In this document: positions 6,020 to 60,766 of the stretch, in pieces
Numbering within the stretch: the stretch's first letter is position 1
Layout: each line of letters begins with the position of its first letter
NCBI GenBank assembly: GCA_016215455.1
Contig: JACRJP010000004.1
Coordinates: 91,787-155,786, forward strand
DNA from: Candidatus Tayloriibacteriota bacterium
GTDB lineage: Bacteria > Patescibacteriota > Minisyncoccia > Phycocordibacterales > PALSA-1337
Length of the DNA: 64,000 nucleotides
Direction of reading: 5' to 3'
Program-made: the position numbers and the translations under genes
The notes under the pieces: model-generated
What the model saw: the letters and a program-made list of their open reading frames with translations, nothing else
Database searches by the model: none
Told to the model about the DNA's origin: nothing

Positions 6020-6048
6020 TTGACACAATACATATTTCAATGTAATAT
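6020..6048 (+). promoter_or_regulatory. sigma70-like promoter (TTGACA-N17-TAATAT)
   Basis: TTGACA at 6020-6025, 17-nt spacer, TAATAT at 6043-6048. Same architecture as the other G+C-islet promoters. Confidence 0.5.
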
Positions 6049-6089
6049 ACTTTCAGCGGTTCATCTCATTACAGAAACTCACTACAGTC

Positions 6090-6455
6090 ATGCCGAAAAT
6101 CGTCTTCAACATTCCCCACAATACAACACTCGTCCCCGCAGATCTCCTGGGTGCTGGAAAACAGATCATTCATCTGGTCGCAAAGGCCTGCTCCACGGAC
6201 GAGCGTCAGCTCACTCAGTTTGACGTGGACTGGATCGTGAACCCTCTTCCCCACGGCTCCATTGCCGGTATGGGAATCGAACTCTATACGATCGGCTTCC
6301 CTGATCGCAGGAAGAAGCTCGAGAACCTCGACGTGCTCAGGAAACTCAAGGCGGACATCATCGGGGTCTTGCGGGAAATTGTGTCGGGTCTCCCGCCCAT
6401 CAAGGATGACGATGGCTTCCTCTGGGTGCAGTTTACCGACGGACCTCATGTCTGA
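6090..6455 (+). CDS. hypothetical protein (G+C-rich islet)
   Basis: 121-aa ORF ~40 nt downstream of the promoter. The overlapping minus-strand ORF 6069..6476 was rejected because of promoter orientation. Confidence 0.4.
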   Translation: MPKIVFNIPHNTTLVPADLLGAGKQIIHLVAKACSTDERQLTQFDVDWIVNPLPHGSIAGMGIELYTIGFPDRRKKLENLDVLRKLKADIIGVLREIVSGLPPIKDDDGFLWVQFTDGPHV

Positions 6456-6539
6456 GGTCCTCGATATGGTAGTCAACTACCCGAGTGATCAGACTCGCAG
6501 CAATACAACTTTACACCACGCCCTGATCAGCGTGTGTTT

Positions 6540-6962
6540 TTATTTAACTACCATTTGAGAGATTCGCTCCTTTATCTGATCTTTTACGTTTCTTGTAAAA
6601 TCAGTATCCTGTCCTTTTGGATCGGGAAGACTCCATCGAATCATCTTTGGAGATTGTGCCAAATATTCAGGTAGGTCTTCAGTTGGTTCCATGATTACAA
6701 CCACCGTATCTACAGTATTAACCATCTCTTCTGTTAATTGTTTGCGCACTACCATTGAAAGATCAATCCCTTCTTCATTCATGACATCAAGAACTGGTCC
6801 TATGCGTCCAAGTGGAACTATTTTACTGATAGGTTCTTCAGGTCCACTCAACTGCGTTCCAGCGGAAAATACTTCGTGCTGTGTTCCAAATTTCTTTCGA
6901 AATAGAGCTTCGGCCATCTGACTTCTTCCAACATTTCCTTTACAAACAAAAAGAATTTTCAT
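6540..6962 (-). CDS. low-molecular-weight protein-tyrosine phosphatase / ArsC-type arsenate reductase family
   Basis: P-loop CKGNVGRS (CX5R) at the N-terminus; size 140 aa. Confidence 0.75.
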   Translation of the reverse strand: MKILFVCKGNVGRSQMAEALFRKKFGTQHEVFSAGTQLSGPEEPISKIVPLGRIGPVLDVMNEEGIDLSMVVRKQLTEEMVNTVDTVVVIMEPTEDLPEYLAQSPKMIRWSLPDPKGQDTDFTRNVKDQIKERISQMVVK

Positions 6963-6972
6963 ATTAAATATA

Positions 6973-7305
6973 TTATTTCTTCACCACAACCTGCCATTCA
7001 TCATGGTATACAATCTCACCGATCGTATGTGGGTCAATTTCTTCCATTTTGATATTTGATAGATACTTCTGATGGACTTTTAGTAAGGTGCTTTCATACT
7101 GTACTTTACCTTTTTCGGTAAGAAAAAAACGATACTCACCCTCTGGTAACGATGGCTTAGGCATCCATTTTCGTGCCTCCCATGCTTCGTCTACCAAACT
7201 CTCAGGTAGGAGTCTTTTACCAGCAGAGAAAATACCTTCTCCATTTGATGTGTATCGATACAAAGTTTTGTATGTAGTCATGATTGTAATACTACCACTA
7301 TCCAA
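6973..7305 (-). CDS. hypothetical protein
   Basis: 110-aa ORF tightly packed between flanking minus-strand genes. Confidence 0.4.
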   Translation of the reverse strand: MDSGSITIMTTYKTLYRYTSNGEGIFSAGKRLLPESLVDEAWEARKWMPKPSLPEGEYRFFLTEKGKVQYESTLLKVHQKYLSNIKMEEIDPHTIGEIVYHDEWQVVVKK

Positions 7306-7615
7306 GCAAATCCCGAGCTATGGTAAGTAGCGACTCTTGATTATCAAGTAGCTCATCAGGAACTTGATAATAATTCATACCGACTACCTTACCATCGGAC
7401 TTGGTATACGAGAATTTAGTCCATCCAAGTCCAACAAGTCTTTCTGCATGTTCCCCCTTTGCCTTAAGATACAATTGATTACCAATAATTGCGGCAAAAG
7501 GAATCTTGTTCGAGTATATACACCATCCACTCATCATATGTCTCGAAGTGACTTCAGGCAGATCATTAAAAATGTCATAAACTATGAAGTCGTGATATGA
7601 GAGATCTTTTTTCAT
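7298..7615 (-). CDS. TfoX N-terminal-domain-like protein
   Basis: Approx. 100-aa pattern ...GWTKFSYTKSDGKVVGMNYYQVPDELLDN... resembles the TfoX_N fold. Weak. Confidence 0.35.
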   Translation of the reverse strand: MKKDLSYHDFIVYDIFNDLPEVTSRHMMSGWCIYSNKIPFAAIIGNQLYLKAKGEHAERLVGLGWTKFSYTKSDGKVVGMNYYQVPDELLDNQESLLTIARDLLG

Positions 7616-7622
7616 ATATAAC

Positions 7623-8153
7623 TCACTTCACCCAATCAAGTTTAATGACTGAAGCATTTGGATATGCAGGTAGATCATAGAAGAGTTCAGGATCTGTTCC
7701 CTTTCTGATAGTTTCAATTATTCTCCCAACTCCTGCATGAGCAACCATGAGAACATTCCCTTCGTACTGATTCCATTCTTTCAAAAATGAATTAACTCTT
7801 TCATCGAACGCTTTAGGGTCTTCTGCATGTTCAGCTCTTACCAACATTTTTGAAGATATTTCAAAGGTAGGAGTTCCTGTAAGACTTCCCATATCATATT
7901 CTGTAATACGTGGATCGATATCTATTTCCTTATCATACCCAATTGTTTGAGCAACAATCTTTGCAGTCTCATGAGCTCGTATGAGTGGTGAACTAATGAT
8001 TTTCTGTATATCCAAACCCATTTCTTTAATCTTCTGACCCTCAGCTTTCGCTTGTTCTATCCCCTTACTTGTTAGAGGAGAGTCATCTTTTTGTCCTGCA
8101 AAAACATGCTTTAAGTTTGCTTCACTTTCTCCGTGTCGAATAAAATAAATCAT
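7623..8153 (-). CDS. histidine phosphatase family protein (second copy)
   Basis: MIYFIRHGESEAN RHG motif; catalytic His in MVAHAGVG. Confidence 0.7.
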   Translation of the reverse strand: MIYFIRHGESEANLKHVFAGQKDDSPLTSKGIEQAKAEGQKIKEMGLDIQKIISSPLIRAHETAKIVAQTIGYDKEIDIDPRITEYDMGSLTGTPTFEISSKMLVRAEHAEDPKAFDERVNSFLKEWNQYEGNVLMVAHAGVGRIIETIRKGTDPELFYDLPAYPNASVIKLDWVK

Positions 8154-8209
8154 GGTGGTCGAAATTAATTATATTGTGTTGTAGTATACCAGAAACGATA
8201 ATTGTCGTG

Positions 8210-8950
8210 CTATTTTTCCGTTATAAGTACAACATAAGGTTGTTCTTGTTCACATAATCTCCAAAAATCCTCACCTAGGATAGCGACCCCTTCTTTTGTA
8301 GGATAAAGCTTTTCCCAAGTTATCTTCTTAAAACCCGCTGCTCGAGCAGCATCAGTATATTCTTCTATAGAAAATTGAGTGAGCAAGGCTGTAAATTTAA
8401 CTTCATTAGTTTTTGGCTTTAAAAAATTAACTTCAACTTTCCCATCTTTTATTTTGAAAATTCTATTTGCAATTACACAATCAAAAGCTTTAAACGATGG
8501 ATTAAAAATGACTGACAAAAATCTTCCACCTTCTTTAAGTACTTTATAAGTCGAATCAAAAAAGTTTATAAGATAGTTTGCATCTGGAGCATATGACAAA
8601 ACCATAACAGATAGGCATTCATCAAATAATTCACCTGTATGAAAAGTAAGAGGATCGTCTACACTATATGTAATTCCAAGAGGATACTTACTTTCATCAT
8701 TCTTTGCTAGAGCAATTAAATCGGAAGCTTTATCGTATCCCCAGACCTTTGCTCCAAACTCTTTTGTTAATTTTCTATCAAACAAACCGTCCCCACAACC
8801 AACATCCAAAAGATACTTACCTTTTATATCCCCAAGTAGTTCAACAACTGTCGGATAGTGCAAGTAATTTCGTATAGGATCTCCATCTACAAAAGATGCA
8901 TACTTATCGCTAATCGTATCAAATTGTTTAACTTCATTATGCATAATCAT
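8210..8950 (-). CDS. class I SAM-dependent methyltransferase
   Basis: Motif I LLDVGCGDGLF; acidic motif II; 246 aa. Confidence 0.65.
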   Translation of the reverse strand: MIMHNEVKQFDTISDKYASFVDGDPIRNYLHYPTVVELLGDIKGKYLLDVGCGDGLFDRKLTKEFGAKVWGYDKASDLIALAKNDESKYPLGITYSVDDPLTFHTGELFDECLSVMVLSYAPDANYLINFFDSTYKVLKEGGRFLSVIFNPSFKAFDCVIANRIFKIKDGKVEVNFLKPKTNEVKFTALLTQFSIEEYTDAARAAGFKKITWEKLYPTKEGVAILGEDFWRLCEQEQPYVVLITEK

Positions 8951-9004
8951 TTTATGAAATGTGGTCTCTTTGCTTGGATTCTAGACCAAACAAGGAGCAA
9001 CTTA

Positions 9005-9331
9005 TTACCTAAACGCAACACTTTTTATTAAATTAATCGCAAACAAAACAGCTGGAACAAAAAACACAACAAAAAGAAAAATATAGTAGGTTAACATTCT
9101 AATATCCTTCGATTTGTATGGTCTATTTTTATGATAAGCAATTTTTTTATAAGCTAATTTAAAAAATATATAACTCATAACTAAAAATCCCGCAAAAAGA
9201 ACACCAGCATAAGCCAACTTAATAAACAAAGGTTGATCATCAATCAAATACCAAAAATTACAACGTGGTACTAGCTCTCCACGAAACTCGACCAAAGTAT
9301 TACAAAAAGATACAGGGCCCATATTTTTCAT
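9005..9331 (-). CDS. small membrane protein (hypothetical)
   Basis: Two predicted TM helices; AT-rich. Confidence 0.35.
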   Translation of the reverse strand: MKNMGPVSFCNTLVEFRGELVPRCNFWYLIDDQPLFIKLAYAGVLFAGFLVMSYIFFKLAYKKIAYHKNRPYKSKDIRMLTYYIFLFVVFFVPAVLFAINLIKSVAFR

Positions 9332-9438
9332 ATATTAACACAGAAACAAGGTCCCCATCTTCACCACTGTGCACAATCTCAAACAGTGATATATCTTGGA
9401 CGAGCCGAGAACAACAGGTTTACTGAATGATTAGAAAA

Positions 9439-10161
9439 TTAAATTAAAATTCCAATTTTCTTTAAAATCCCTTGTTTAACAATATTTGTGAATTTGGGTA
9501 GGCTTATTTGTGTGTAAAAACTTTCCCATCTTCTTTCTCCCCCTTTCTTATTTATAGAATATCCAGCAAATACATCAAAAAGTCCGTATTGGTTGTCTGA
9601 AAATGCGAATGGTGTTGTGGGTCCAAATTCATGTAAAACATAATTACGTATGTTATATAGGTGTTGTGCTACTACATCTATATATTTATCTATATTTTTC
9701 AAATTTCTATCTAGAGTTTGGTAGGATGGACCATAATCAGTATACCGACTCTCCTTAAACAATTCATGATATACCCTTTGATATCCACCTCCCGCTTCAT
9801 CTCTAATTTTTAGATTATCTAACAAATACAATTTATCAATTTTCTCTAATCGTCTCAGGAAAGATTTGAAATCGTCTATCAAATTATTGTTCTCTTCAAC
9901 TGCATCAATTAAAATAAACAAAAGAACGGGACGGAGTCTGTTTTCATCCTTGGCAATCTGAGTATCTAGTGATTGATAAAACGCAATTGAAAACAGAAAC
10001 CGTGTTGCATAATCTTCATTAAGCCCATTTAATGTACTAACAAATACTTCTCTATCAGAAAAGCCTACATCCTTAAAAAACTCTAGACAAGTACTTATAT
10101 ACCTCTCCTTTATATCAGATTCCATATTCTTGAGAATTGTATTTCTTAGATCTGTCACCAT
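9439..10161 (-). CDS. hypothetical protein (AT-rich, next to tRNA-Glu)
   Basis: 240-aa K/N/D-rich ORF; no recognisable domain. Confidence 0.45.
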   Translation of the reverse strand: MVTDLRNTILKNMESDIKERYISTCLEFFKDVGFSDREVFVSTLNGLNEDYATRFLFSIAFYQSLDTQIAKDENRLRPVLLFILIDAVEENNNLIDDFKSFLRRLEKIDKLYLLDNLKIRDEAGGGYQRVYHELFKESRYTDYGPSYQTLDRNLKNIDKYIDVVAQHLYNIRNYVLHEFGPTTPFAFSDNQYGLFDVFAGYSINKKGGERRWESFYTQISLPKFTNIVKQGILKKIGILI

Positions 10162-10213
10162 GTTCTGTACTATTATTCATAGGTATTACTATCTGCCACC
10201 TCCAGCAAATCTG

Positions 10214-15930: not shown

Positions 15931-15931
15931 A

Positions 15932-16405
15932 TTAGAGCATTCCTACCTGACCCAACTTTTCTGCGAGTGCATCAGCTTGCTTCTCGACTACCTTCTTGTA
16001 CTCGAGCCAAGCCTTTTCATTCCAGATTTCTGCACGTGTCTGAACTCCAATGACTACTGTCTTGTTTTTAAGTCCAGCACGTTCCTTAAGAAAATCAGGA
16101 ATGAGAATGCGACCTATCGAATCGATCTCTGCTTCAACAGCTCCTCCAAGAAGAAAGCGGTTGAAACTTCGACTGTCTGCCGACAACATTGATGATTCAG
16201 AAAGCTTTCCCGAAATCTTTTCCCATTCCTTCATCGCGAAGACGAAGATACATGAGTCAAGACCAGGAGTAAGCACAACCTTCTTCCCCATTTCTTGGCG
16301 GAACTTAGAAGGCATCGATAAACGATTCTTATCGTCGATGGTGTGGGTGTATTCTCCGATCAGCATATGCGCGCAAGTGAGAAGAAATCTTTTATACCAC
16401 TTCAT
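15932..16405 (-). CDS. mraZ: transcriptional regulator MraZ
   Basis: Two DXXXR-type MraZ repeats (IDDKNRLSMP / IDSIGRILIP). First gene of the dcw cluster. Confidence 0.85.
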   Translation of the reverse strand: MKWYKRFLLTCAHMLIGEYTHTIDDKNRLSMPSKFRQEMGKKVVLTPGLDSCIFVFAMKEWEKISGKLSESSMLSADSRSFNRFLLGGAVEAEIDSIGRILIPDFLKERAGLKNKTVVIGVQTRAEIWNEKAWLEYKKVVEKQADALAEKLGQVGML

Positions 16406-16500
16406 CCCACTTAAGTAATATTATATACCACTCTATCCCACACACCAACATATCGCACCACCCTATTATGGGGATTACCTGTGTATAAGTTACAAAAGTA

Positions 16501-16526: not shown

Positions 16527-16591
16527 AAAATAATAAAAATCACTCTAACGTGGTGACGGGACGGCATGTAGGTTTCATGCAATTTTTCGAT

Positions 16592-16819
16592 CTAGAGGAT
16601 CTGGGTTATTTTGATGTGAAGGCCAACCCCAACAGCCCCAAATAGAATTGCGAGGGTCAACCATAAAACCCACAGTATAGGTTCGAAACCAGACTTCCGC
16701 TTACTGAACGGAACCGGATACTTGTAGGAGAAGAAGCTCATGCTGCCCATAATGGCGGCCAAAATATAGAGGAAGGTATACGGTGTCATACAGATCTCCG
16801 TTTCTTTTAATTCTACCAA
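16592..16819 (-). CDS. small membrane protein (hypothetical)
   Basis: 75 aa with 2 TM helices. Confidence 0.3.
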   Translation of the reverse strand: MVELKETEICMTPYTFLYILAAIMGSMSFFSYKYPVPFSKRKSGFEPILWVLWLTLAILFGAVGVGLHIKITQIL

Positions 16820-16951
16820 CCAGACTTTTTTGAGGAGCTGGTTTTTGTGATACTCGTGGGTAACGAGGTGGCCTTAGACATAACTTATGTCGGAGGGCTA
16901 TCTGAGTAATATTATACAACAGATATATGATATAGGTCAATATATCATGAA

Positions 16952-20960: not shown

Positions 20961-21737
20961 CTATTTTTTAACTGTTACCCATCGCATCTGTTGAATATTG
21001 ATTGGAGTCTTAAAATAGATCGCAACAAAAGCTCGAGCAGGATCAGTTGTCACATATTCAACAACACCAAATAGCCCTTCATACAATGCAGGAATAGTTA
21101 CCGGATCACCAGGAACAATTTTAAATTCACGAGGAACAATAGCTTCATATACACCTCCTCCTTTTCCAATAGCAGTAGCTCGCACTGAATCCTTTCCCAA
21201 CAATACCTCATATGTCTGATCAGGAGATGAGAACAACACCACCTTTGAACTATGTTCATAGACATCAACCACTCTACCAATGAGTGTTGATGAGGCGTAC
21301 ACATCTTTATTCACCTGTATTCCTTCAGCAGAACCTGCATCGATGATGATCGTATCGTATGGAGATTGTGGAGGTACACTTAAAACTGCAGCAAGTATTT
21401 CTTGATGAGTATTTTGTCGACCAAACATTTCTTTGAGTCGAGTATTCTCTTCACGCAAAAGAGAAATCTCTGCCCGAAGAGTTTCTGGTGATGATGACGC
21501 AAGATCAGAAGGAACTGGGTCACGGATGATTTGAATTTGATGCTGTACTGCTAATAAAGGAGTGAGTACTCGCAACAACAATCCTGTAAAAAATCTTGGG
21601 AAGATAATGTGTACGAGAATGAAACAACCAAGAATGGTTGCCACTATAACCGTAGGTCGATTATTTCGTTGTTGTTCTCTATTACTTTGTCGCAGGTAAT
21701 TCATCTTCGTTTTGTATGAGAGACTCTCGATATTCAT
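20961..21737 (-). CDS. mreC: rod shape-determining protein MreC
   Basis: N-terminal TM, coiled coil, C-terminal beta domain. True start is probably an internal Met to avoid the 56-nt overlap with mreB. Confidence 0.75.
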   Translation of the reverse strand: MNIESLSYKTKMNYLRQSNREQQRNNRPTVIVATILGCFILVHIIFPRFFTGLLLRVLTPLLAVQHQIQIIRDPVPSDLASSSPETLRAEISLLREENTRLKEMFGRQNTHQEILAAVLSVPPQSPYDTIIIDAGSAEGIQVNKDVYASSTLIGRVVDVYEHSSKVVLFSSPDQTYEVLLGKDSVRATAIGKGGGVYEAIVPREFKIVPGDPVTIPALYEGLFGVVEYVTTDPARAFVAIYFKTPINIQQMRWVTVKK

Positions 21738-41677: not shown

Positions 41678-41798
41678 TAAAAATAGAAAACTAGTTTAGG
41701 CTGAACCAATGAGTGCATTTTAATAAAGTGCTTTCATTGGTTCAGCACTAGACAGTGGAATGCAGTCCACAACATAAAAGGAGGACTTCTCTGCACGG

Positions 41799-41915: not shown

Positions 41916-42116
41916 GTAATAGTTGGGAGGCAAAGACAAGAAAGCCTTAATTTCTTGGAGAGTGGAGAACTGTCGCAAGAGGTACACTCCCATACTCGAT
42001 GCTCAGCATGAAATGGCTGGGCAATTTTTATATCTGATACTCACAAGCACATCCTGAAAATTTAATTGGCTGGACTAAGACTAAAAACAATTTCAAACTT
42101 TGGTATAATAAACGAC

Positions 42117-42518: not shown

Positions 42519-42555
42519 TAAATTTATTTCAAAAAAGCATAGAACAATTTAAAGA

Positions 42556-44396: not shown

Positions 44397-44399
44397 AAA

Positions 44400-45371: not shown

Positions 45372-48300
45372 AAAATATTATCTATTTCTTTCATGGTTTT
45401 TTCAGTTTCCACAAGAGCAACAATCATCTTCTGATAATGTTCTAGATCTTCACTTGAAAGAAGTCTGTCACGTCTATCTTTAAGCCATTTTTGAGCAGGC
45501 TGATATCCGCCAATATAGAAATTCCAAGCAATTTTTGGAACGCCACCAAAATATTGCTTTTCATTTATATAAACCTTACCATCTTTATATTTCGGATATT
45601 TTGCTTCAACAGTATCGCTTCCTGCTTCGGGAAATGTCGTGAGGAGGTTTTTGAGTTTTGGTGATTCCAAAAGGTGAAACTCGCGCAATTCCCTACCCAA
45701 AATAACAAGTGCTTTAAATGAGGCTACGTCCTTCGGGTACGGCACTCGAGGAAAATCAATTTTAAGAAATTCTTTGTATTTTTCTCGATAACTTGGTGAG
45801 TGTAGAACTGCGTAAATATAGTCGAGGATATCTTCAGGGATGATTTTTCCAACAGTTTTTTCTATTTCTTCAATAATTTCTTTATTTAGATTTGGAACTT
45901 TTGACCCATCTTCAGCATAAAGATAAAGTGGGTAAATTTGTTCTGCACCCAGCATGCCAGGTCTTGACCACGATCTTCTATCAATGATGTATTTGGTAAT
46001 AAAACAAGGAGCAGATTCTTCTTGAACAAAGCCTCGTTTTGCAATAAATCCTAGGTTATCTTTAAGCATGTGTCTCATTACTTCAGACCTTGGGCGAGAA
46101 AAAACGCCCTCGCTTTTTAATGAGTATAGTGTATGTCTAACATCGAAAGGTCGATAGAGTATTTCTGAGGAATCAGCAACAATATTTTTAATATCATTCC
46201 TAACAGCGGTCACCTGTTTCTTTTCTACATTATTTCTTTGAGTTATTTCTTCATCTGTTTTTGTTTGAAAGGATTCACGCAACTCATTAATTTCTCTCGT
46301 TGAGAACTTAATCAAAAGATCATCTTTTGCTGAAGTAGCTCCTGAAGAGTGTATGGGAAATAAATTTGAAACAGAAAATCCCTTATTATAATTTCCTTCG
46401 CCTGAAAAATCTTTAGGTGTAAAAAAGTAGTTAGGATGAACACACTTAAGAAAATTCCATTTGAAGTTCTCTAGACTGCCTTTGTTAAGTGACTCAAACT
46501 TATCTTCTCGCTTACCATACAGATCTTTATGGTACACCTCCCCCAACCCTTTCTTCTTTCCTTCATTCTTGACAAAGATATCTATCGAAACTCCCTGCAT
46601 GATATTAAACACATTTTCATCCCTACCACCATCAGGAGCTTTTTCTTTTTTCTTTGAATTTCCATGTAAATTAACAATATAGATTGAATCAAAAGTCTCT
46701 AGTAGATGTTTTCTCATCTGCCGGTGGGTAACACCGTCGATGAAGGAGTTGTTTGTGATCATCGCTACAATACCGCTTCCGTTCTTTTCAATCAGACTCT
46801 CAGATAATCGAATAAATTTTATATAGTCATCAGAAAGTTGTTGTATATTTTTTTCATTCAAATCCTTTTTATACTCTTTAATCAAATCCTGTATCCATTC
46901 TCCCTTATTCTGAGAACTGACGCTATACGGCGGATTCCCCATTACCACCATGATCGGTAACTCATTCTTTACCTTATTCGCCTGATTAGATTCCTCTGTG
47001 ATAGCCTTTCCGAGCCCGATGTCGAAAAGTGTTTTTTCTTCAATTTCAGCTTTTTCTAGAGAGTTTGTCAGATATACACCAAGACGAGTATTTTCTATTT
47101 TTGCACCAGTCTCAGCAATCGTCGAGGAAAGCTTGAGATGTGCAATCGTATACGATGCCATCATCAACTCGAAACCATGCATGCGTAGCAGGAGATCTGC
47201 ATTCACGTACGAAGACCAACGACCTTCCTGTCCCTCGAAAGATTTCTTAATGTGAAGTATAACTTCATTGAGGAATGTACCTGTACCTGTAGCTGGGTCG
47301 AGAATCTGAACCCTATGAATCGGCACTTTATGTCGCTTACCTTGGATCTCTTTGAGAATATCTATTTTTGACGCATCAGCTAGACCTTGTGGTAGATCAA
47401 ACTCTTTTTTCAAAATGTCATCTACTGTTCGAACAATAAATCGGACCACTGGTAGAGGTGTATAGAACACGCCCATTTTCTTACGTTCAACTGAATCATA
47501 TTCTTGAAGGAAGTCTTCATAGAAGTGAATGATGGGGTCACGACTGCTGTCCTTATCAACTTTGTAGTAATTATGAACAATGGCTTGCACATCAGCGTGA
47601 TTAAACTCCTCACAGAGTTCATTCACAATATATTCGATACGTGGATCAAATGAAGATCCGGCTATGTGGTCAAAGAAGTGACGTAGAAATGGATTTGAGG
47701 CAGGAACAAGGTCTCGTGCTTCTTGGCGTGAGAAATTGTCTGTTGTTTTATCATAGTACCTTGCTACAAAGAGACCGTAGACAATTGTCTGAGCGTACAT
47801 GTCAGCAAACTTTGCATGATCAAGATCAGCAAGGAGAAGTTTCTTGATAACCTCATATACACCGAGCAAGTTTTCATTCTTAGGATTCTTTTCATCTTCA
47901 AGAAACTTCTTTACGTTATCTCGAATACGACGAGCCTTACCAGCCATAACTTTTGAGAGCACAGTACCGGATTTGATCGGCTCTTTAGATTCTTTTATGA
48001 AATCTCCAATTGTATCGGCTAAAAGTTGAAACGGACCCTCAAAAGGTTCCACACTGTCTTTGTGTAGCTTTCCAACAATGATTGGATCACTGTAGCGAAT
48101 CCCATTTCTGAAAAAGCGAAAATCAAGACCATTGGTGAGTATAATGTTCGAATAGCCGTAGTAGCGAGTCATCTGCTCACTTTTCTCTATCTCATCAAGC
48201 GAGACATTAATATCTTTTGCCTCTGCATAAGCAATAACAGTCTTTCCTTTGAGAAACACGAAGTCAGGAGCACCATGCTCGCTACGTTTAGGCTCATTGA

Positions 48301-48424
48301 TTACATTCAATCCCGTTGTCTGTTCAAAAAGCTCCTTGAGAGCGGGACGGTAAGAGTGTTCACGTGCATGTCCGCTACTGTAGGTCTCTATTACTTTTTG
48401 AATGAATGTTGCAACTGGAGTCAT
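45368..48424 (-). CDS. Type IIG restriction-modification enzyme (fused PD-ExK endonuclease + gamma-class N6-adenine DNA methyltransferase + C-terminal TRD)
   Basis: N-terminal nuclease motif APDFVF...IAYAEAK. MTase motif I ILDPATGTGTFL and motif IV NPPYS. ATG at 48424 preferred over the GTG-initiated extension to 48520. Confidence 0.8.
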   Translation of the reverse strand: MTPVATFIQKVIETYSSGHAREHSYRPALKELFEQTTGLNVINEPKRSEHGAPDFVFLKGKTVIAYAEAKDINVSLDEIEKSEQMTRYYGYSNIILTNGLDFRFFRNGIRYSDPIIVGKLHKDSVEPFEGPFQLLADTIGDFIKESKEPIKSGTVLSKVMAGKARRIRDNVKKFLEDEKNPKNENLLGVYEVIKKLLLADLDHAKFADMYAQTIVYGLFVARYYDKTTDNFSRQEARDLVPASNPFLRHFFDHIAGSSFDPRIEYIVNELCEEFNHADVQAIVHNYYKVDKDSSRDPIIHFYEDFLQEYDSVERKKMGVFYTPLPVVRFIVRTVDDILKKEFDLPQGLADASKIDILKEIQGKRHKVPIHRVQILDPATGTGTFLNEVILHIKKSFEGQEGRWSSYVNADLLLRMHGFELMMASYTIAHLKLSSTIAETGAKIENTRLGVYLTNSLEKAEIEEKTLFDIGLGKAITEESNQANKVKNELPIMVVMGNPPYSVSSQNKGEWIQDLIKEYKKDLNEKNIQQLSDDYIKFIRLSESLIEKNGSGIVAMITNNSFIDGVTHRQMRKHLLETFDSIYIVNLHGNSKKKEKAPDGGRDENVFNIMQGVSIDIFVKNEGKKKGLGEVYHKDLYGKREDKFESLNKGSLENFKWNFLKCVHPNYFFTPKDFSGEGNYNKGFSVSNLFPIHSSGATSAKDDLLIKFSTREINELRESFQTKTDEEITQRNNVEKKQVTAVRNDIKNIVADSSEILYRPFDVRHTLYSLKSEGVFSRPRSEVMRHMLKDNLGFIAKRGFVQEESAPCFITKYIIDRRSWSRPGMLGAEQIYPLYLYAEDGSKVPNLNKEIIEEIEKTVGKIIPEDILDYIYAVLHSPSYREKYKEFLKIDFPRVPYPKDVASFKALVILGRELREFHLLESPKLKNLLTTFPEAGSDTVEAKYPKYKDGKVYINEKQYFGGVPKIAWNFYIGGYQPAQKWLKDRRDRLLSSEDLEHYQKMIVALVETEKTMKEIDNIL

Positions 48425-48715
48425 ATTACACAATACTTTACCATTTTTGTGGCTAAAAATAAAGATTTTACAATGCAGACACACCCCAATTCTGTTACTA
48501 TTACAAATATGACTTTCCACACAAAGGAGTCCGAAACTTATTGAGTGATCTTAAAAAATCTCTTTTACGGAAGATGGAAGAGATGACATAACAACCAAGG
48601 GTGAGATGAAGCACTGGCACGTTTTCCATGTAATAGCTCGTAAATACTAGCACCACTGTAGGTTACATTCTTTGCTTCAATTTCATGTGATAAAATATAC
48701 GTAACCACTTTTCCC

Positions 48716-49813: not shown

Positions 49814-50296
49814 ATGCAACCAACATTAGATTCGATTCGACACGTCTTTTTTGAGGCGATGGCAAGCGGCTGGGCACAAGATGTTCAGCTAACCACGATA
49901 TCAGGATTTCCTGGCTCAAAAGCAATCTCTTTCGCTCTTGGAGAATTTCGACTGATCGACTGCTACATGGTTACTCCGCATTCTGAAAAAAGCGCAGGTG
50001 TAACCACAATCTGGCATCTGGACCAGCCGGTCTGGATCATGCATTATGGCGGCTGGTATGCAAAGCTGGCCATCCCCTTTCTCAAGGCATGCTTGCATCG
50101 GGCATATGTCGAAGAACGCCATTTTTACGGCGGTCGCGGACCAGACTTTGTTCGTGACGAGCGATTCGTGTATGTGAATCGAATCGAACGTAACGATTTT
50201 GGAGATTTTGCGGGCGAAGAGAGAATCTTCGACCTCAGTGAGCAGTGCTTTGGTTACCACTGGTATCGAGGGATGTCACTTACCAACAGCAGGTAG
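49814..50296 (+). CDS. hypothetical protein (G+C-rich)
   Basis: 160 aa with SD GAGGTGA 5 nt upstream. Confidence 0.45.
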   Translation: MQPTLDSIRHVFFEAMASGWAQDVQLTTISGFPGSKAISFALGEFRLIDCYMVTPHSEKSAGVTTIWHLDQPVWIMHYGGWYAKLAIPFLKACLHRAYVEERHFYGGRGPDFVRDERFVYVNRIERNDFGDFAGEERIFDLSEQCFGYHWYRGMSLTNSR

Positions 50297-50323
50297 TGGA
50301 ACCTAGCACCTTCAATTGACTCA

Positions 50324-50356
50324 AGCCGTCCGGCAACCCTGGACGGCTCTTTTTAT
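50324..50356 (+). terminator. rho-independent terminator
   Basis: AGCCGTCC-ggcaaccct-GGACGGCT followed by CTTTTTAT. Confidence 0.6.
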
Positions 50357-50385
50357 ACACCAACTATCATGCTACGATTGCCACA

Positions 50386-50883
50386 ATGGAAACTAAAAAA
50401 GCTTTAGGTGTTGATATTGGTAATGTCATCATCAACAATCGTCTCAATGATCCCGAAGTCAACAAAGTAGACGAAAATGTATACGCAGCCTTCCCTCCTT
50501 CAGAGGGAGTATTCGATGCATTAAAAACTCTCAATCAATATTTTGATGGTGAAGTCTACTTACTCTCAAAATGTACTGAATGGGCACAGGAACAAATCTT
50601 GCTATGGCTTACAGCGCATGATTTCTATACCAAAACAGGAATCATGGAACATAATGTTCACTTTGTACGACAACGACATGAAAAAGACGGTGTTTGTCGA
50701 AAATTAGGCATCACTCACTTCATCGATGATCGACTTGAAGTTTTAAGTCATATGATTGAATCAACTCCCCACCTCATTCTCTTTCAACCCAACAATGAAG
50801 AGGTGAAAGAATTTGAACAATTCCTTCCAAAAGTTACGGTAGCTACTACCTGGACTGAGGTAGTTAAGAAAATTACTACATAA
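50386..50883 (+). CDS. hypothetical protein (possible degenerate HAD-like nucleotidase fold)
   Basis: LGVDIGNVII aligns where the HAD DxDG motif sits, but the second Asp is lost. Weak. Confidence 0.4.
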   Translation: METKKALGVDIGNVIINNRLNDPEVNKVDENVYAAFPPSEGVFDALKTLNQYFDGEVYLLSKCTEWAQEQILLWLTAHDFYTKTGIMEHNVHFVRQRHEKDGVCRKLGITHFIDDRLEVLSHMIESTPHLILFQPNNEEVKEFEQFLPKVTVATTWTEVVKKITT

Positions 50884-50890
50884 CACACAA

Positions 50891-51280
50891 CTATCCCTGA
50901 AACTCGATTTCAAACGGATACATTCCCATTCCGCACGAACCCTGAAGTGTACCGAGCTTGCCGTCGCCAATATCAATATCAGTTATTCCAGACTGAGGCA
51001 GGACCCTACTGATATTCATACTTGGAATTCTCACCGATGATGAACAATCAAAAGTTCCCTTTGTAACGAATCGAATAACAGTTGGGATACCAGCCTTAGC
51101 ACTACTCTTTCGAGGTTGATACCCACCTCGAGCCGTGATTTCGATAATCTGCTTCCCATCAACAATACTGACATTGTTTGCAGACACCGTCTGTCCAAGA
51201 TCATTACGACCATTCGTGAGTAAAAAAGCCCCTCCGATGAGAATCACTGCTACTACAATTGAGATGGTAATTGCTTTCAT
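50891..51280 (-). CDS. cupredoxin-like secreted/membrane-anchored protein
   Basis: N-terminal TM; C-terminal GSCGMGM Cys/Met cluster typical of Cupredoxin_1-type copper-binding domains in cop operons. Confidence 0.45.
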   Translation of the reverse strand: MKAITISIVVAVILIGGAFLLTNGRNDLGQTVSANNVSIVDGKQIIEITARGGYQPRKSSAKAGIPTVIRFVTKGTFDCSSSVRIPSMNISRVLPQSGITDIDIGDGKLGTLQGSCGMGMYPFEIEFQG

Positions 51281-55423: not shown

Positions 55424-55897
55424 CTAGGGGGTATTAGAGTCAAGTCTAGATTTCGTAGTAATAGTCTTTTCAAAATAAGTTGCAACAATAGAAGTCGCAC
55501 CGAAGAAAAAGATGATTAAAAGACCCATAAAAACACCTCCAGCGATGTCATCCTTACCCCGTTGAAATATAAAGAGATATATTTCTCCTACAACAGCAAA
55601 GCCAACGAGAGATGTTGCACAGTATCGTATGATCCGAGTAGCTTTCATACCTGCTACTGAAAACAGTGTGTTGTGTCGAATATATCCAAGTAATAGAAAC
55701 TTTTGATACAACATCATAAAGAATGGAATAGACGCTATGTATGCACATAGTAAAAAAGGATCATTAAAATACACTTCAAAGAATGTGGCGTGTACATTCC
55801 TTCCTTCAAGATGAGGTTCATAGAGCATGAATATAAAGGCACTAATACCAATACCTATCAAAGCTACTTGGGACAATAATACGAGAATTCTCTTCAT
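55424..55897 (-). CDS. membrane protein (hypothetical), first gene of the cop operon
   Basis: 157 aa with 4 TM helices. Confidence 0.4.
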   Translation of the reverse strand: MKRILVLLSQVALIGIGISAFIFMLYEPHLEGRNVHATFFEVYFNDPFLLCAYIASIPFFMMLYQKFLLLGYIRHNTLFSVAGMKATRIIRYCATSLVGFAVVGEIYLFIFQRGKDDIAGGVFMGLLIIFFFGATSIVATYFEKTITTKSRLDSNTP

Positions 55898-55916
55898 AAT
55901 TTCATAATATCATAAT

Positions 55917-55945
55917 TTGACAAAATATTATGTTTATCGTAATTT
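55917..55945 (+). promoter_or_regulatory. sigma70-like promoter (TTGACA-N17-TAATTT)
   Basis: TTGACA at 55917-22, spacer 17, TAATTT at 55940-45. Confidence 0.5.
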
Positions 55946-55979
55946 GTTTTTAGAACACTTCACAGAACCACATATTCCC

Positions 55980-56339
55980 ATGTACGAAGGACACACCACA
56001 CCAGAGAACGTCGCTCTAGCAGAACGTTTAATGGATGACTATCATTCAATGGAACTCCCGGCGGAGCCGATTCCTTGGAAAGAAGCGAGTGAATTTCAAC
56101 ATCGTTGTCATCTATGTAGCCATTTCGCTTCTAGCACGGACCGAAGACCAGCACACCCAGAGAACGGGAACATCTTTAATCTCACTCATCTCTGCCTTAG
56201 ATGCGGTCGCCGATGGTGGCAATACAATAGCGTCTATCACCTCTGGCAACACGTGACAGACCCCGTTGAGTGGGATACTCTTCGCAGGCAGCAAATCATG
56301 CTCAATGGAGGTTTTGGTCTTCCCGGAGCAGATCAGTAG
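55980..56339 (+). CDS. hypothetical protein with CxxC...CxxC zinc-ribbon-like motif (G+C-rich)
   Basis: CHLCSHF...CLRCGRRWW. Start reset to the first ATG downstream of the promoter; the track ORF starts at 55917 inside the -35 box. Confidence 0.4.
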   Translation: MYEGHTTPENVALAERLMDDYHSMELPAEPIPWKEASEFQHRCHLCSHFASSTDRRPAHPENGNIFNLTHLCLRCGRRWWQYNSVYHLWQHVTDPVEWDTLRRQQIMLNGGFGLPGADQ

Positions 56340-56495
56340 CTCATTCTGCAACTTGATTTTTTATTATCGACACAAGTTGCCATACTTCTCCCATAAATAC
56401 CACTGATACAAATTACAAATTGGTTTGCATGAATAGTGGGTGTTGTAAATAAAAAGTCTCGAGACAGTGCCCGAGAACACTAGCGAGGAAGTAGC

Positions 56496-57320
56496 TCACT
56501 CCGGCGCAGGAGAACCTCCGTTCTTCTTGCCGATGTCAGACCGTGCCGCCGCAGAAACAATCGCAGCCCGTTCTTTGTTGGTAATCACACCTCCAGAGTT
56601 GAGATAGTTTGCGAGATCCGTCACGCATGACACGTAATCGCCATGATTGGCAACACCGACCGCACACTGGTCGATGAGGTCTTGCACTGTTGCGCCGCCG
56701 GAACCGACGACCACTTGAATCGTCACGCTCGCGAGTCGCACACCACCAGAACCGGCGCCCTTCTCTACCGCATACAGCGTGTAGTCATAGGTAGCGTTCT
56801 GCGTGGGATTAAGCCCGTAGACCGCGAACCCGATGTTCTGCGACTGTTGGACGATGTTGTAGGTATTCGCCAGCACCGTCTGATCTCCGGCTTCGATGCC
56901 GCCACCATTAGGCGTCGCGTCGTTGCCGAAGGAGTTGTCGGTCCAGGTCGTGAGAACGTTGAGTGCGTTGTAATTGACACCCACCGAGGGATCGAGATCG
57001 ACCAGAAGATAGTAGTCGAGCTGGCCGACCGGTCCGTTTCCGGTCCGGATCGAAAACTCGAAATTCCAAGCAGCACGAGTTATGCTCGAAGGAGCAAAGC
57101 CGACTGGCATGTAATACGTATCGTCAACGTGGGTGGTGTCCCCTGTCGTGCGATTCTTAGCGCGCAAAGCGACGGTGACGTCGTTCTGAGTTTCGGCGTT
57201 CCAACCGACATCAGGGTTCCCACCACCGAAAATTGCCGTGATCACGGCATTGAAGTCGATGGCAAAGGCCGCTGAGGTGGAGACGAGTGCTGCAATGAGC
57301 ACTGAGGTGAGACGCTTCAT
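56496..57320 (-). CDS. secreted hypothetical protein (markedly G+C-rich)
   Basis: Signal peptide MKRLTSVLIAALVSTSAAFA. Gly/Thr/Asn-rich mature part; G+C by eye is far above the flanks. Confidence 0.5.
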   Translation of the reverse strand: MKRLTSVLIAALVSTSAAFAIDFNAVITAIFGGGNPDVGWNAETQNDVTVALRAKNRTTGDTTHVDDTYYMPVGFAPSSITRAAWNFEFSIRTGNGPVGQLDYYLLVDLDPSVGVNYNALNVLTTWTDNSFGNDATPNGGGIEAGDQTVLANTYNIVQQSQNIGFAVYGLNPTQNATYDYTLYAVEKGAGSGGVRLASVTIQVVVGSGGATVQDLIDQCAVGVANHGDYVSCVTDLANYLNSGGVITNKERAAIVSAAARSDIGKKNGGSPAPE

Positions 57321-57501
57321 AGACGTTTATAGACTGTGTGTTTCTGTATGCCGTACTACTCACTCTACTTGTTGCAATGAGCAAACGGTCCAAAACAAAA
57401 TTATCACACAAAATACAATCTGTCGAGATTTACCTATGAAATACTTAGATTCAGGGTTATGATATGCTCAATGTATGAGAACAATAAAGTAATATATCGC
57501 T

Positions 57502-58601: not shown

Positions 58602-59021
58602 ATGAAAAAAATACTCACCATATCATCATTCTTTGCAATTATTGCTGGAATCATACTTGTCATCGGGGGTGTCTGGGGCATCTTTTTTACTTACAAAAAT
58701 ATTACACAAGAAAAAATAGTAACTCCAGCAGACGCAACTATTTCACAACAACCAGTACGTGGACCTTTTACACTGAAAGCACAAGCTGACATTATTCGAA
58801 AACACGTACTTGCAACAACTGGAGGAAAAACATATGCCGAAATGTCACGTGAGGATGCAAATCGCAATCTTTGGATCACCGCAACAACTCTTACAACCGC
58901 ACTCAATCTAGGTATCTTAACCTATGTATTCTCTGGTCTCATTCTCCTATTTGGTTGTGTATCAATCTGGACTGGTGTCATTTTTTACGCATTACGATCT
59001 CGAAAAAACAATTTTGCATAA
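58602..59021 (+). CDS. membrane protein (hypothetical)
   Basis: N- and C-terminal TM helices; 139 aa. Confidence 0.35.
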   Translation: MKKILTISSFFAIIAGIILVIGGVWGIFFTYKNITQEKIVTPADATISQQPVRGPFTLKAQADIIRKHVLATTGGKTYAEMSREDANRNLWITATTLTTALNLGILTYVFSGLILLFGCVSIWTGVIFYALRSRKNNFA

Positions 59022-59043
59022 GATAGAAGTCACGAAAATCCTC

Positions 59044-59559
59044 ATGAGAACACAAACGATTCGAGTCAACGACCGCATGCAAAAAGAGTACAGCTATGAG
59101 TTGACTGAACCTACTGGTAAAAACTTCGATCCGCAATTCAAACCTCCTCTCACACCACAACAGATGCTTGAACTTGGAGTATTCGGGGGTGTATACATGC
59201 GTGACTGTACCAAAGAATTTCCAGAAAGCTGGTTTACTTCTGCAAAATTTCAGGATAAGAATTCATACAAACCAAATCCAAAACTCAACTATTTTGGTGT
59301 AAACGCATCACAACCACTTTCTGTATGGCGAGCAAAAGGATGGATTTACAAAGATGATCCTCGTGGATGGTTTCAATGGTATTGTCGTTATTACCTTGGT
59401 CGACGATGTCCTGATGATACACGCCAAATCAAGCGCTGGCTTGCAATGCGTCGACATATCATGCAAATCAAAAATAATTGCAGAGCAGGAGATATTAACT
59501 GTCGCCGAAAGCAACGACAAGCGCTCCTTCACTGGGCATACGATAGTAGAAATTTGTAG
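59044..59559 (+). CDS. hypothetical protein (basic, Trp/Cys-rich C-terminus)
   Basis: Internal ATG at 59044 chosen to avoid overlap with the upstream gene. Confidence 0.35.
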   Translation: MRTQTIRVNDRMQKEYSYELTEPTGKNFDPQFKPPLTPQQMLELGVFGGVYMRDCTKEFPESWFTSAKFQDKNSYKPNPKLNYFGVNASQPLSVWRAKGWIYKDDPRGWFQWYCRYYLGRRCPDDTRQIKRWLAMRRHIMQIKNNCRAGDINCRRKQRQALLHWAYDSRNL

Positions 59560-59571
59560 TGTCTAAGAAGC

Positions 59572-60189
59572 TTATGAAACCTTCTTAATCTTATTTTCAT
59601 CGGCGACTCTCCATAATATCTTGGCAGCATAGGTACGATATGGAGCCCATGATTTTGAGAGTTGTACCATCTTCTTTTGACTTGGTAATTTTCGAAGACC
59701 GTAAATATACATAATCCCCTTCTGAAGACCGAGGTCTCCTGTAGAAAAAATATCTTCACGACCAAGGGAGAACATTAGGATCATTTCTGCTGTCCAAGGA
59801 CCAATACCTTTTACTTTCGTTAATGTTGTAATAACTTCATCATCTTGAAGATGATGAATATTTGTAAGATTAAGATGGGCTTGTTCAACCGCCTGAGCAA
59901 GACTTTTTATAGCTATGATTTTTGCATTTGAAAAACCACACTCGCGGAGTGCTCCATCATTTATTTTAAGCACATGAGGAGCTATGAACTTTTTCTTCCC
60001 TAACAACTTTTCTAATCTACCAAATATTGTATCGGCAGCCTTGCCTGATAATTGTTGTGAAGCAATCGCTCGAACAAGATCACGAAACACGTTATCTGAT
60101 ATTTTAATCGTATCAATCTTGTGTACTAAAGAAGCCCTGTACAGAATCGGGTCCGTCCTTTTGAAATGTTGCTGGGCTTTATGATACAT
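59572..60189 (-). CDS. HhH-GPD DNA glycosylase (AlkA/3-methyladenine glycosylase II-like)
   Basis: Helix-hairpin-helix VKGIGPWTAEM followed by the catalytic Asp (STGD). Confidence 0.7.
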   Translation of the reverse strand: MYHKAQQHFKRTDPILYRASLVHKIDTIKISDNVFRDLVRAIASQQLSGKAADTIFGRLEKLLGKKKFIAPHVLKINDGALRECGFSNAKIIAIKSLAQAVEQAHLNLTNIHHLQDDEVITTLTKVKGIGPWTAEMILMFSLGREDIFSTGDLGLQKGIMYIYGLRKLPSQKKMVQLSKSWAPYRTYAAKILWRVADENKIKKVS

Positions 60190-60194
60190 ACTCT

Positions 60195-60707
60195 TTACAC
60201 CTTATCACTCGCATAGCGTTTTTTACGATACCAATATACCGCATATATAAGAATAAGGAATCCTACGTTCGTAAAAAATATAATTGGTGTTGACCAGGGT
60301 ATTCCATTAATCGGAGTAAATGCAAATGGCCATAAATATGGTGTAGGGAAAAATTCTGTCGAATGTGTAAAGAGATCAAGAAATATATGAAATGGCCACG
60401 CAAGCATTTCCCATATTGGTCGTTTAAACAATGCCCATACAATACAAAATACGAGTATGAATATAACAAAGCTGTGTGTGATGTCATAAAGACCACTCAC
60501 ATACTGGGGAATCTCAGCAAGATCGGGTTTACCTGAACGTATGTGCCAAGTACCCGTGAAGGCCGAACGAATAAGTCTTTCTAAGAAAAGAATACCGAAT
60601 GAAAGAAAATCGGGACCAATACCGAAAACAAAACTCGCCCAAAAGCTTTTTTTATTTTTTCTACCAAAAATAATACCTCCCCAAAGTCCGTGTGAAAGAA
60701 TATCCAT
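60195..60707 (-). CDS. membrane-bound metal-dependent hydrolase (DUF457/YdjM-like)
   Basis: MDILSHGLWGG N-terminus and His-rich TM helices. Confidence 0.5.
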   Translation of the reverse strand: MDILSHGLWGGIIFGRKNKKSFWASFVFGIGPDFLSFGILFLERLIRSAFTGTWHIRSGKPDLAEIPQYVSGLYDITHSFVIFILVFCIVWALFKRPIWEMLAWPFHIFLDLFTHSTEFFPTPYLWPFAFTPINGIPWSTPIIFFTNVGFLILIYAVYWYRKKRYASDKV

Positions 60708-60737
60708 GAGAGAAGTATAGCAAAAAATATTAAAAAA

Positions 60738-60766
60738 TTGCCTTTATTAAAAGAAAAGCGTAATCT
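60738..60766 (+). promoter_or_regulatory. sigma70-like promoter (TTGCCT-N17-TAATCT)
   Basis: -35 at 60738-43 and -10 at 60761-66. Confidence 0.45.

Follow-up and report, generated by a model that had tools for sequence, protein, structure and literature searches.

The system closest to the one described here is the phage moron, a concept reportedly owed to Hendrix and Juhala. A moron consists of one coding region with its own sigma-70-type promoter and factor-independent terminator, lies between genes that are adjacent in relatives, and has a deviant composition (PMC4378225). Genomic islands and horizontal gene transfer (HGT) account for up to 13% of Patescibacteria genomes, with transfers running mostly from one member of the group to another (PMC12455944), and Saccharibacteria have been found capable of natural transformation with homologous recombination (PMC10633639). 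Here we analyzed a chromosome segment of Candidatus Taylorbacteria, an uncultured ultrasmall bacterium from the CPR (candidate phyla radiation, or Patescibacteria), which carries the NCBI tags HZA80_029xx-033xx; this whole stretch of 64,000 nucleotides is called the window. G+C-rich open reading frames (ORFs) are scattered through its housekeeping backbone, and we consider it rather probable that these islets are independent, self-contained, moron-like accessory transcription units, most of them horizontally acquired. We refer to the units as i1 to i11, i16k and the histidine-phosphatase unit.

The GC content of the window is 39.6%. The initial annotation had singled out eight segments as richer in GC than their surroundings, and this held up, as they contain 44.7-53.6% GC and fall at the 92nd to 99th percentile of windows of the same length. 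GC at third codon positions (GC3) is 0.21-0.34 in backbone genes and 0.40-0.70 in 13 ORFs of the window. Seven of the eight segments have raised GC3, and the remaining one, 38935-39453 (i5), is marginal with 44.7% GC, the 92nd percentile and a GC3 of only 0.34. Members that had been overlooked lie at 5349-5966 (the histidine-phosphatase unit), 16592-16789 (minus strand, i16k), 49814-50296 (i7), 56496-57320 (minus strand, i9) and 63021-63452 (i11), with i9 the strongest outlier at 56.6% GC and GC3 0.65. The plus strand carries 10 of the 13 GC3-rich ORFs versus 14 of 64 backbone genes (p = 2.7e-4). Expression-linked codon bias fails to explain the GC excess, because the genes for ribosomal proteins L9, L27 and L21 have backbone-like GC3 values of 0.22-0.40. 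We therefore ruled it out as the cause, and the suggestion that the islets form a high-expression regulon gains no support from codon usage. The ORFs had also been described as mutually unrelated hypothetical proteins; all-vs-all BLASTP bears out the lack of relationship. Some cargos have homologues or a fold assignment. The scarcity of Shine-Dalgarno (SD) sequences noted for the islets is real but genome-wide (4 of 63 backbone genes and 7 of 77 ORFs in the window have one), and thus is no islet trait.

A near-consensus promoter was said to stand 25-45 nt upstream of every islet, which is correct for most of them. The exact motif TTGACA-N17-TAnnnT occurs five times in the window versus 1.2 expected, and all five sites are on the plus strand, intergenic and immediately 5′ of GC-rich ORFs: 436-464 for i2 (a perfect TTGACA-N17-(TGa)TATAAT), 6020-6048 for i3 (-10 TAATAT), 29638-29666 for i4 and 40649-40677 for i6 (both (TGt)TAATTT), and 55917-55945 for i8 (TAATTT). 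Near variants precede i5 (38878-38906, plus strand, TTGACA-N17-TATAAA), i9 (57426-57398, minus strand, TCGACA-N17-(TGa)TAATTT), i16k (16940-16911, minus strand, TTGACC-N18-TATAAT), i1 (101-130, plus strand, TTGAAT-N18-TATAAT) and the histidine-phosphatase unit (5293-5321, plus strand, TTGACC-N17-TACTTT), and one more follows i6 (41650-41677, plus strand, TTGACA-N16-TAATCT). The exceptions to the earlier description are i4, where the distance from the -10 to the ATG is 108 nt; i2, where the -10 ends 2 nt 5′ of the called GTG; and i10, which has a weak promoter (60738-60766, TTGCCT-N17-TAATCT). Since the -10 of i2 ends at 464, its mRNA is probably leaderless and starts at GTG 472.

In this single 64-kb window we compared genes whose upstream gap measured 40 nt or more, and found an intergenic site with a TTGACA-like -35, N16-18 and a TAnnnT -10 within 130 nt of 8 of 13 GC-rich ORFs and of 1 of 26 backbone genes (Fisher p = 1.6e-4; p = 0.002 under a stricter count), in line with the claim that housekeeping genes lack such strong promoters. 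The stricter motif TTGAC[AT]-N16-18-TAnTnT was seen 6 times versus 2.1 expected (p about 0.03). A relaxed motif was not enriched across the window (53 sites versus 56.7 in shuffles), so the signal lies in the quality and placement of the sites, not in their number; generic consensus promoter scans also returned counts at or below chance. The promoters have little in common besides the consensus hexamers. The -10 TAATTT agrees with TATAAT at only 3 of 6 positions, and the recurrence of TAATnT in eight promoters hints at a promoter class over chance. A Bacteroidetes-type -7 motif (TAnnTTTG), judged by eye, was set aside because the i9 promoter alone fits it. Backbone promoter regions, by inspection, have -10-like TATAMT or TATGAT elements that are often TG-extended and poor -35 hexamers, and several backbone genes look leaderless, such as those with TATACTTNTCTCATG at 60707 and 62951. 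We infer that backbone genes mostly rely on -10-dominated promoters or leaderless starts, and that the islet promoters are active. The full series of promoter, ORF and intrinsic terminator is clear in i2, the histidine-phosphatase unit, i3, i4, i6, i9 and i16k, and is weaker in i1, i5, i7, i8, i10 and i11.

To compare relatives, we used a sister strain represented by two Logan contigs from SRR22388193, about 98.5% identical across common DNA, and a related species (L079) in which YqeY is 87% and RmuC 93% identical. Three units are variable between the strains, i4, i16k and i6 (the last as part of an island at tRNA-Asn), and each of the three promoters is part of the variable DNA. The sister strain has no i4 segment (29594-30161); 29 bp separate its GT2 and mreB-like genes. 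The i16k segment measures 416 bp (16531-16946) versus about 16-21 nt at the same place in the sister strain. At the third locus, identity ends at 39849, 6 nt past tRNA-Asn (39768-39843), and resumes at 48679. L079 lacks two more units, i2 and the histidine-phosphatase unit, where synteny would place them, and islet indels are thus seen at both the strain and the species level. The i1 and i3 units are syntenic in L079 with positionally conserved promoters (TTGACA for i3) and proteins 45% and 42% identical; the i1 homologue follows yqeY and keeps the TATAAT-GCGACAGAC start region. Because presence and absence differ across the sister strain and L079, the units differ in age: certain units are strain-specific, others species-specific and others again genus-conserved. 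The window has further strain-variable blocks (1512-4901, 7620-10208, 32060-33208 and a restriction-modification block). Their A+T content equals or exceeds that of the backbone, and such promoters are missing from them. The same junctions were assembled independently in the NCBI metagenome-assembled genome (MAG) and in Logan contigs of three runs, which makes an assembly artefact unlikely. A PriA-anchored synteny scan of metagenomes returned one short related contig only, and an exact-match look-up of the S30AE protein returned no further strain types.

Homologues in other genomes have the same architecture. The sole i4 homologue (62% identity) is found in a genome of about 37% GC (L009) at a different locus, between cysS and dnaB, where its GC is 55%. 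It is preceded there by its own TTGACT-N17-TATTAT promoter, in a conserved position, and by a leader of about 105 nt that is likewise conserved, and is followed by a terminator; i4 has relocated between genomes as a whole promoter-untranslated region (UTR)-ORF-terminator unit. An i3 homologue in an unrelated genome of 46% GC (L080) is non-syntenic and lies on the strand opposite to its neighbors, with a perfect TTGACA-N16-TGaTATAAT promoter in front and a strong terminator behind. The i9 family comprises 52 homologues and 63 genome loci and is centered in Verrucomicrobia and other high-GC bacteria. Its members occur in Chthoniobacterales, Opitutae, Acidobacteriota, Burkholderiales, Planctomycetota and Maribacter, with a patchy distribution in Patescibacteria; several members outside the CPR bear PEP-CTERM or VPDSG-CTERM sorting tags. 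In 11 of 11 CPR loci examined the i9 gene is 1-16 points higher in GC than its flanks, whereas in most sampled non-CPR loci, one Maribacter locus excepted, it is at or below them. Most CPR copies have TTGAC(T/A)-N16/17-TAnTnT about 85-100 nt upstream, followed by a GGAC motif.

Two of the strain-variable units have distinctive junctions. A 39-nt direct repeat, 95% identical, brackets i4, with copy A at 29555-29593 and copy B at 30162-30200; it is the 3′ end of the mreB-like gene, including the stop codon. The i6 unit lies between two diverged modules of about 100-170 nt each (module L, 40421-40600; module R, 41505-41640), and between the same two modules the sister strain has a different GC-rich gene of 180 aa with a TTGACA-N16-TAATTT promoter. 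The module R junction is identical (TTTTTTATTTTTGTGCACATG) behind the two different cassettes. On the minus strand the modules read as a relic protein C-terminus, ...TFEWxEVVEDVEVMKREVKYLIAFTCAQK and stop (...EVVEDVEVMKREVKYLIAFTCAQK and stop), which parallels the i4 repeat in being the end of a protein gene, there that of the convergent mreB-like gene. No intact parent gene of the relic peptide was found, nor were more copies of the module in the window, the compared loci or the JGI metagenomes. A 15-nt inverted repeat (41517-41531 / 41579-41593) is present in one module copy only and is not conserved in the sister-strain module. Terminal inverted repeats are absent from the ends of i4, i6, i16k and the histidine-phosphatase/i3 pair. 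Around i16k there is no flanking repeat of any kind, and the older units have no repeats. A Pfam scan of 40 window ORFs, with some small ORFs outside the scan, gave no integrase, recombinase or transposase domain. The duplicated gene ends could be footprints of single-crossover or att-like integration, or equally anchors for homologous cassette replacement. The i4 repeat was also considered as a footprint of homology-facilitated illegitimate recombination with a divergent donor tract, and in that form the idea was rejected because the mreB-like gene to the right of i4 is about 99% identical to that of the sister strain; the divergent tract 31162-32059 belongs to the neighboring 32060-33208 indel and not to i4. 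In that tract, a 275-aa gene (31206-32033) is 66-91% identical to the sister strain, versus about 99% for its neighbors, and abuts a 357-aa A+T-rich gene (32063-33136) that is lacking there. The region 31162-33208 resembles DNA imported by recombination and has no apparent relation to the GC-rich units.

The strain-variable island at tRNA-Asn spans 39850-48678, beginning 6 nt after the tRNA, and contains a 163-aa ORF, i6, a 150-aa ORF, DUF2779, DUF3644 and a 1050-aa Type ISP restriction-modification enzyme; the sister strain has a different 3.5-kb gene set instead. We found no integrase in the island and no repeat of the tRNA 3′ end in the window, although the search for short att repeats was not exhaustive. 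Behind module R, 41650-42033 resembles an extra transcription unit, with the TTGACA-N16-TAATCT promoter, a perfect 13-bp stem at about 41702-41748, a GGAGG box, a possible 36-aa ORF, a terminator at 42000-42023 and no called gene. It may be a small RNA (sRNA) or small-protein gene.

Most units are protein-coding genes. The i1 unit (101-420, plus strand) has a 79-aa ORF at 157-396 with GC3 0.40 and a weak terminator, and its RNA fold z-score is -0.98. The i2 unit (436-733, plus strand; ORF 466/472-690, GC3 0.51) differs from the sister strain at 3 positions, all of them synonymous; its fold z-score is -3.85, to which the terminator contributes part, and its hairpin at 706-733 is common to the convergent histidine kinase gene. 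Both lack NCBI annotation. The histidine-phosphatase unit (5293-6018, plus strand; ORF 5349-5966, GC3 0.47) ends in a terminator at 5987-6018, and i3 (6020-6545, plus strand) encodes 121 aa at 6090-6455 with GC3 0.70 and a terminator at 6517-6545. Full-length homologues of i3 number 63, of about 115-125 aa, and its AlphaFold model (predicted local distance difference test score, pLDDT, of 95.5) matches the tautomerase superfamily (MIF, cis-CaaD), with the N-terminal Met-Pro of the family present. These homologues and the fold settle the coding strand, so that a Logan call on the opposite strand is wrong. The i16k unit (16531-16946, minus strand) has an SD, a 65-aa ORF with two transmembrane segments (16789-16592) and a terminator, and sits between lysS and the lysS terminator.

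The i4 unit (29555-30200, plus strand) encodes 99 aa at 29774-30073 and has a terminator at about 30117-30155. Its 5′UTR (about 29673-29773, plus strand) looks like a structured switch: GAGGGCGGAAG at about 29691 can pair with CTTCCGCCTC at about 29745, and in an alternative pairing the CTTCCGCCTC segment may pair with GCGGAAAGG and sequester the SD. In the L009 homologue (about 6150-6258) the long-range stem is kept via 4 compensatory pairs, a comparison of two sequences only, and the element is absent from Rfam. The i5 unit (38878-39453, plus strand; 172-aa ORF) is kept in the sister strain. The i6 unit, which with its flanks occupies 40421-41677 on the plus strand, encodes a lipoprotein-like protein of 261 aa (40706-41491) with a terminator at 41494-41520, and had no match among Protein Data Bank (PDB) sequences. 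The i7 unit (49814-50358, plus strand) is a DUF5680 ORF with an SD, a weak promoter and GC3 0.50, and ends in a strong terminator (50324-50348 and a T-run). Compared with the sister strain, identity dips to 88-90% at 49879-50178 in i7 (to 87.7%) and at 50779-51078 in a cupredoxin-like gene, versus 95-98% nearby, and these may be divergence or allele-replacement hot spots.

The i8 unit (55917-56375, plus strand; 119-aa Cys/His-rich ORF at 55980-56339, GC3 0.47) and i10 (60738-61356, plus strand; 185-aa ORF at 60799-61356, GC3 0.40) are kept in the sister strain. Directly 5′ of the -35 hexamer of i8, and overlapping with it, are three tandem 8-nt units (TCATAATN) at 55894-55925. They stand in the divergent region common to i8 and the minus-strand gene 55424-55897 and may be an operator or UP-like element. 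The i9 unit (56450-57426, minus strand) has an 84-nt leader, an ORF for a secreted protein of 274 aa (57320-56496) and a terminator at 56476-56457 plus T-run. Finally, i11 is a 143-aa plus-strand ORF (GC3 0.50) amid minus-strand genes with no convincing promoter. The islet proteins gave nothing significant against Pfam, PHROGs, NCBIfam or PADLOC except DUF5680 for i7, and no relatives of the i9 family, i6, i10 or i7 were found in viral contigs.

In our reading, each unit is built from a sigma-70-type promoter with a full -35 (TTGACA, a 16-18 nt spacer and a -10 of TATAAT or TAATnT, frequently with TGn), followed by a leader, a single ORF and an intrinsic terminator, and most have been inserted opposite to minus-strand housekeeping operons. 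The cargo would be unrelated proteins from a horizontally exchanged gene pool, partly of other Patescibacteria and partly of high-GC bacteria, and its GC and GC3 would exceed the backbone because it is drawn from that pool. We further propose that units land between or against operons, so that expression and retention are open only to those that bring a promoter and terminator of their own. The same principle underlies phage morons and would here operate in a cellular chromosome. Acquisition would be ongoing, with unit ages that range from strain-specific through species-specific to genus-conserved. The likeliest route of insertion would be uptake of DNA and then recombination, homologous or homology-facilitated, for which the duplicated 3′ ends would serve as anchors; natural transformation in Saccharibacteria makes such a route plausible here. 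A gene with a TfoX_N domain at 7298-7615, annotated via the sister-strain call, belongs to a family of competence regulators and fits DNA uptake as a route of gene gain. The initial annotation had offered horizontally acquired islets with their own promoter as one possibility, and the indels that carry promoters, the relocation of i4 and the i9 family centered in Verrucomicrobia and high-GC bacteria agree with it. Its description of a promoter-plus-cargo cassette family finds no support if taken to mean one mobile element: there are no common ends, terminal inverted repeats or recombinase, and i1 (157-396) and i3 (6090-6455) are old residents.

Several points weigh against horizontal acquisition of moron-like units as we propose it. 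Although i1 and i3 are old residents they are still GC-rich, which simple HGT that is not yet ameliorated does not explain, and for i9, whose GC excess recurs in many CPR lineages, selection on the gene could be the cause and not repeated transfer. For the persistent GC richness of i1, i3 and i9, either repeated exchange in a GC-richer mobile pool or selection on the genes must be invoked. High GC3 extends beyond accessory genes, as the core gene mraZ has a value of 0.46. For most cargos no donor was found, i4 having one homologue and i6, i8, i10 and i11 having been searched shallowly. The activity of the promoters, and the -35-less character of those of the backbone, are read from sequence inspection, and the thresholds of the promoter association were picked post hoc, after inspection of the data from one 64-kb window.

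An unlikely alternative is that the islets form a host regulon of vertically inherited, fast-evolving small proteins of this lineage, co-expressed under one promoter class (TTGACW-N16/17-TAnTnT), perhaps with a particular sigma factor, and owe their GC to selection or to a mutation bias of strong head-on transcription. The synteny of i1 and i3 in L079 with conserved promoter positions, the strong strand bias (p = 2.7e-4) and the i9 homologues of diverse CPR, which retain both the TTGAC(T/A)-N17-TAnTnT promoter and the GC excess, would all be expected of a regulon, and it is retained as a rival because the unusual -10 TAATnT is common to eight promoters. However, i4, i6 and i16k, together with i2 and the histidine-phosphatase unit, behave as indels when strains or species are compared, the i4 homologue sits at a different locus and the i9 family is centered outside the CPR. 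Ribosomal-protein genes lack raised GC3, and the GC3 spread of 0.40-0.70 suggests heterogeneous sources. Less probable again is a dedicated cassette exchange, in which site-specific integration at the 3′ end of a convergent gene would duplicate that end, cassettes would accumulate or be swapped in the module slot by tRNA-Asn, as with integrons or cis-mobilisable elements, and the recombinase would be encoded elsewhere. The 39-nt repeat of the mreB-like 3′ end around i4, the modules of about 100-170 nt that flank i6 and another cassette in the sister strain, and the constancy of the TTTTTTATTTTTGTGCACATG junction after two different cassettes all suit such a system. It is opposed by the lack of an integrase or transposase domain in the scanned ORFs and of terminal inverted repeats, with the inverted repeat of the module in one copy only; i16k and the older units are without flanking repeats, the module was found in the tRNA-Asn island only, with none in JGI metagenomes, and homologous recombination between relic repeats would give the same picture.

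We regard it as very improbable that the islets are misassembled or contaminant DNA, or structured noncoding RNA (ncRNA) genes, with the promoter-like sites arising by chance in A+T-rich spacers. The relaxed promoter motif does occur at chance frequency, i1 and i2 are unannotated by NCBI, and shuffled controls fold less well than the transcript of i2 (z = -3.85). On the other hand, the junctions recur in independent assemblies (three SRA runs and the NCBI MAG), i1, i3, i4, i7 and i9 have protein homologues, the i3 fold is confident and the i2 differences are all synonymous, and the strict motif is enriched and placed upstream of GC-rich ORFs. Rfam, at both gathering and E-value thresholds, matches tRNAs only, and ncRNA genes were rejected for most units on this ground together with the i1 z-score of -0.98 and the coding evidence. 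This explanation is largely refuted. As an extension of the moron-like reading, we tentatively speculate, with a good deal of doubt, that Patescibacteria may host a distinct class of integrase-less moron-like cassettes (promoter, UTR, ORF and terminator inherited and moved as a unit) that are exchanged by uptake and recombination at slots made up of 3′ ends duplicated from convergent genes. Two observations speak for such slots, the module-bounded site at tRNA-Asn with different cassettes in two 98.5%-identical strains and the 39-nt duplication around i4. If this is true, distinct cassettes should be recognizable genome-wide by a GC excess and a full TTGACW-N16/17-TAnTnT promoter, versus the -10-dominated or leaderless backbone.

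The backbone around the units is mainly on the minus strand and encodes a histidine kinase, an EamA transporter, a Mur ligase, two penicillin-binding proteins, MraZ/MraW, LysRS, a class II (ProRS-type) aminoacyl-tRNA synthetase, two MreB paralogues, RRF, PriA and a copper ATPase. The GC skew of the plus strand is negative over the entire window, and tRNA-Glu and tRNA-Asn are its sole known RNA genes. On the minus strand, TATACTTNTCTC at 60689-60707 and 62933-62951 stands directly before the ATG of two backbone genes, which suggests leaderless mRNAs. Just 5′ of mraZ, and overlapping its called start, two tandem 29-nt repeats with GTGGGAT boxes (16366-16441, minus strand) resemble an MraZ operator; the true start of mraZ is probably a later Met (MLIGEYTH..., 144 aa, as in the sister-strain call) versus the 157-aa ORF. 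The MreB-family paralogues at 21682-22743 and 30167-31180 are 8.5 kb apart and have an 86-nt stretch of 80% identity in common.

Patescibacteria make up a large share of bacterial diversity, and we know of almost nothing reported on their promoters or on gene gain in their small genomes. If the pattern holds genome-wide, GC excess with a full -35/-10 promoter would be a simple signature of recently gained, independently expressed accessory genes, and many cargos seem to be proteins that are secreted or exposed at the surface, with a possible role in host interaction. As natural portable parts, the promoters and terminators of the units would also serve emerging Patescibacteria genetics. The most interesting lead is the gene-end-duplication junctions together with the tRNA-Asn cassette slot. 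Such junctions offer a testable handle on the insertion mechanism, which is still unexplained for phage morons.

Integron cassettes are mostly promoterless, while the cassettes here bear their own promoters and terminators. The likeness to integrons lies in small single-gene units of unrelated function, with different cassettes in the same repeat-bounded slot of two strains; IntI, attI and a conserved attC hairpin were not found here, i4 and i16k are without an attC-like repeat, and the repeats on either side resemble relic 3′ ends of a protein-coding gene. Insertion sequences (IS) and miniature inverted-repeat transposable elements (MITEs) differ in having terminal inverted repeats and a short target-site duplication, whereas here the direct repeats have lengths of 39 nt and about 100-170 nt and stem from the 3′ ends of genes. 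Structured ncRNA genes differ as well, since the units match no Rfam family and coding is supported for most. The tRNA-Asn region resembles a tRNA-linked island in that variable DNA starts at the 3′ side of the tRNA; neither an integrase nor, in a search not exhaustive for short att repeats, a far-border copy of the tRNA 3′ end was found. With the islets and islands described in Patescibacteria (PMC12455944), the window shares strain-variable DNA of atypical composition, many genes of unknown function, and a variable region directly after tRNA-Asn with a Type ISP restriction-modification gene. Unlike those islands, each unit here is one gene of 0.3-1 kb, a size that would probably escape typical island-prediction tools, and is a complete transcription unit with near-consensus -35/-10 elements and no integrase found, while the larger strain-variable blocks of the window are more A+T-rich than the backbone and without such promoters.

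The phage moron is the closest known analogue, and three of its four features recur here. One ORF is flanked by a sigma-70-type promoter and an intrinsic terminator; i4, i16k, i2 and the histidine-phosphatase unit, though not i1 and i3, are inserted between genes adjacent in relatives; and composition is unlike that of the neighbors (GC at the 92nd-99.9th percentile, GC3 0.40-0.70 versus 0.21-0.34). The fourth, residence in a phage or prophage, does not apply: the units lie in a housekeeping CPR chromosome, among a dcw cluster, aminoacyl-tRNA synthetases and mreB, with no PHROG or viral-contig matches. In both systems the mechanism of acquisition is unexplained, with no recombinase or conserved ends. 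The inserts here also differ from morons in being GC-rich within an A+T-rich host, and in that two units have flanking duplications of the 3′ end of a neighboring gene. Given that HGT and islands are already documented as frequent in Patescibacteria, the units represent a chromosome-borne, CPR-specific variant of the moron and islet theme.

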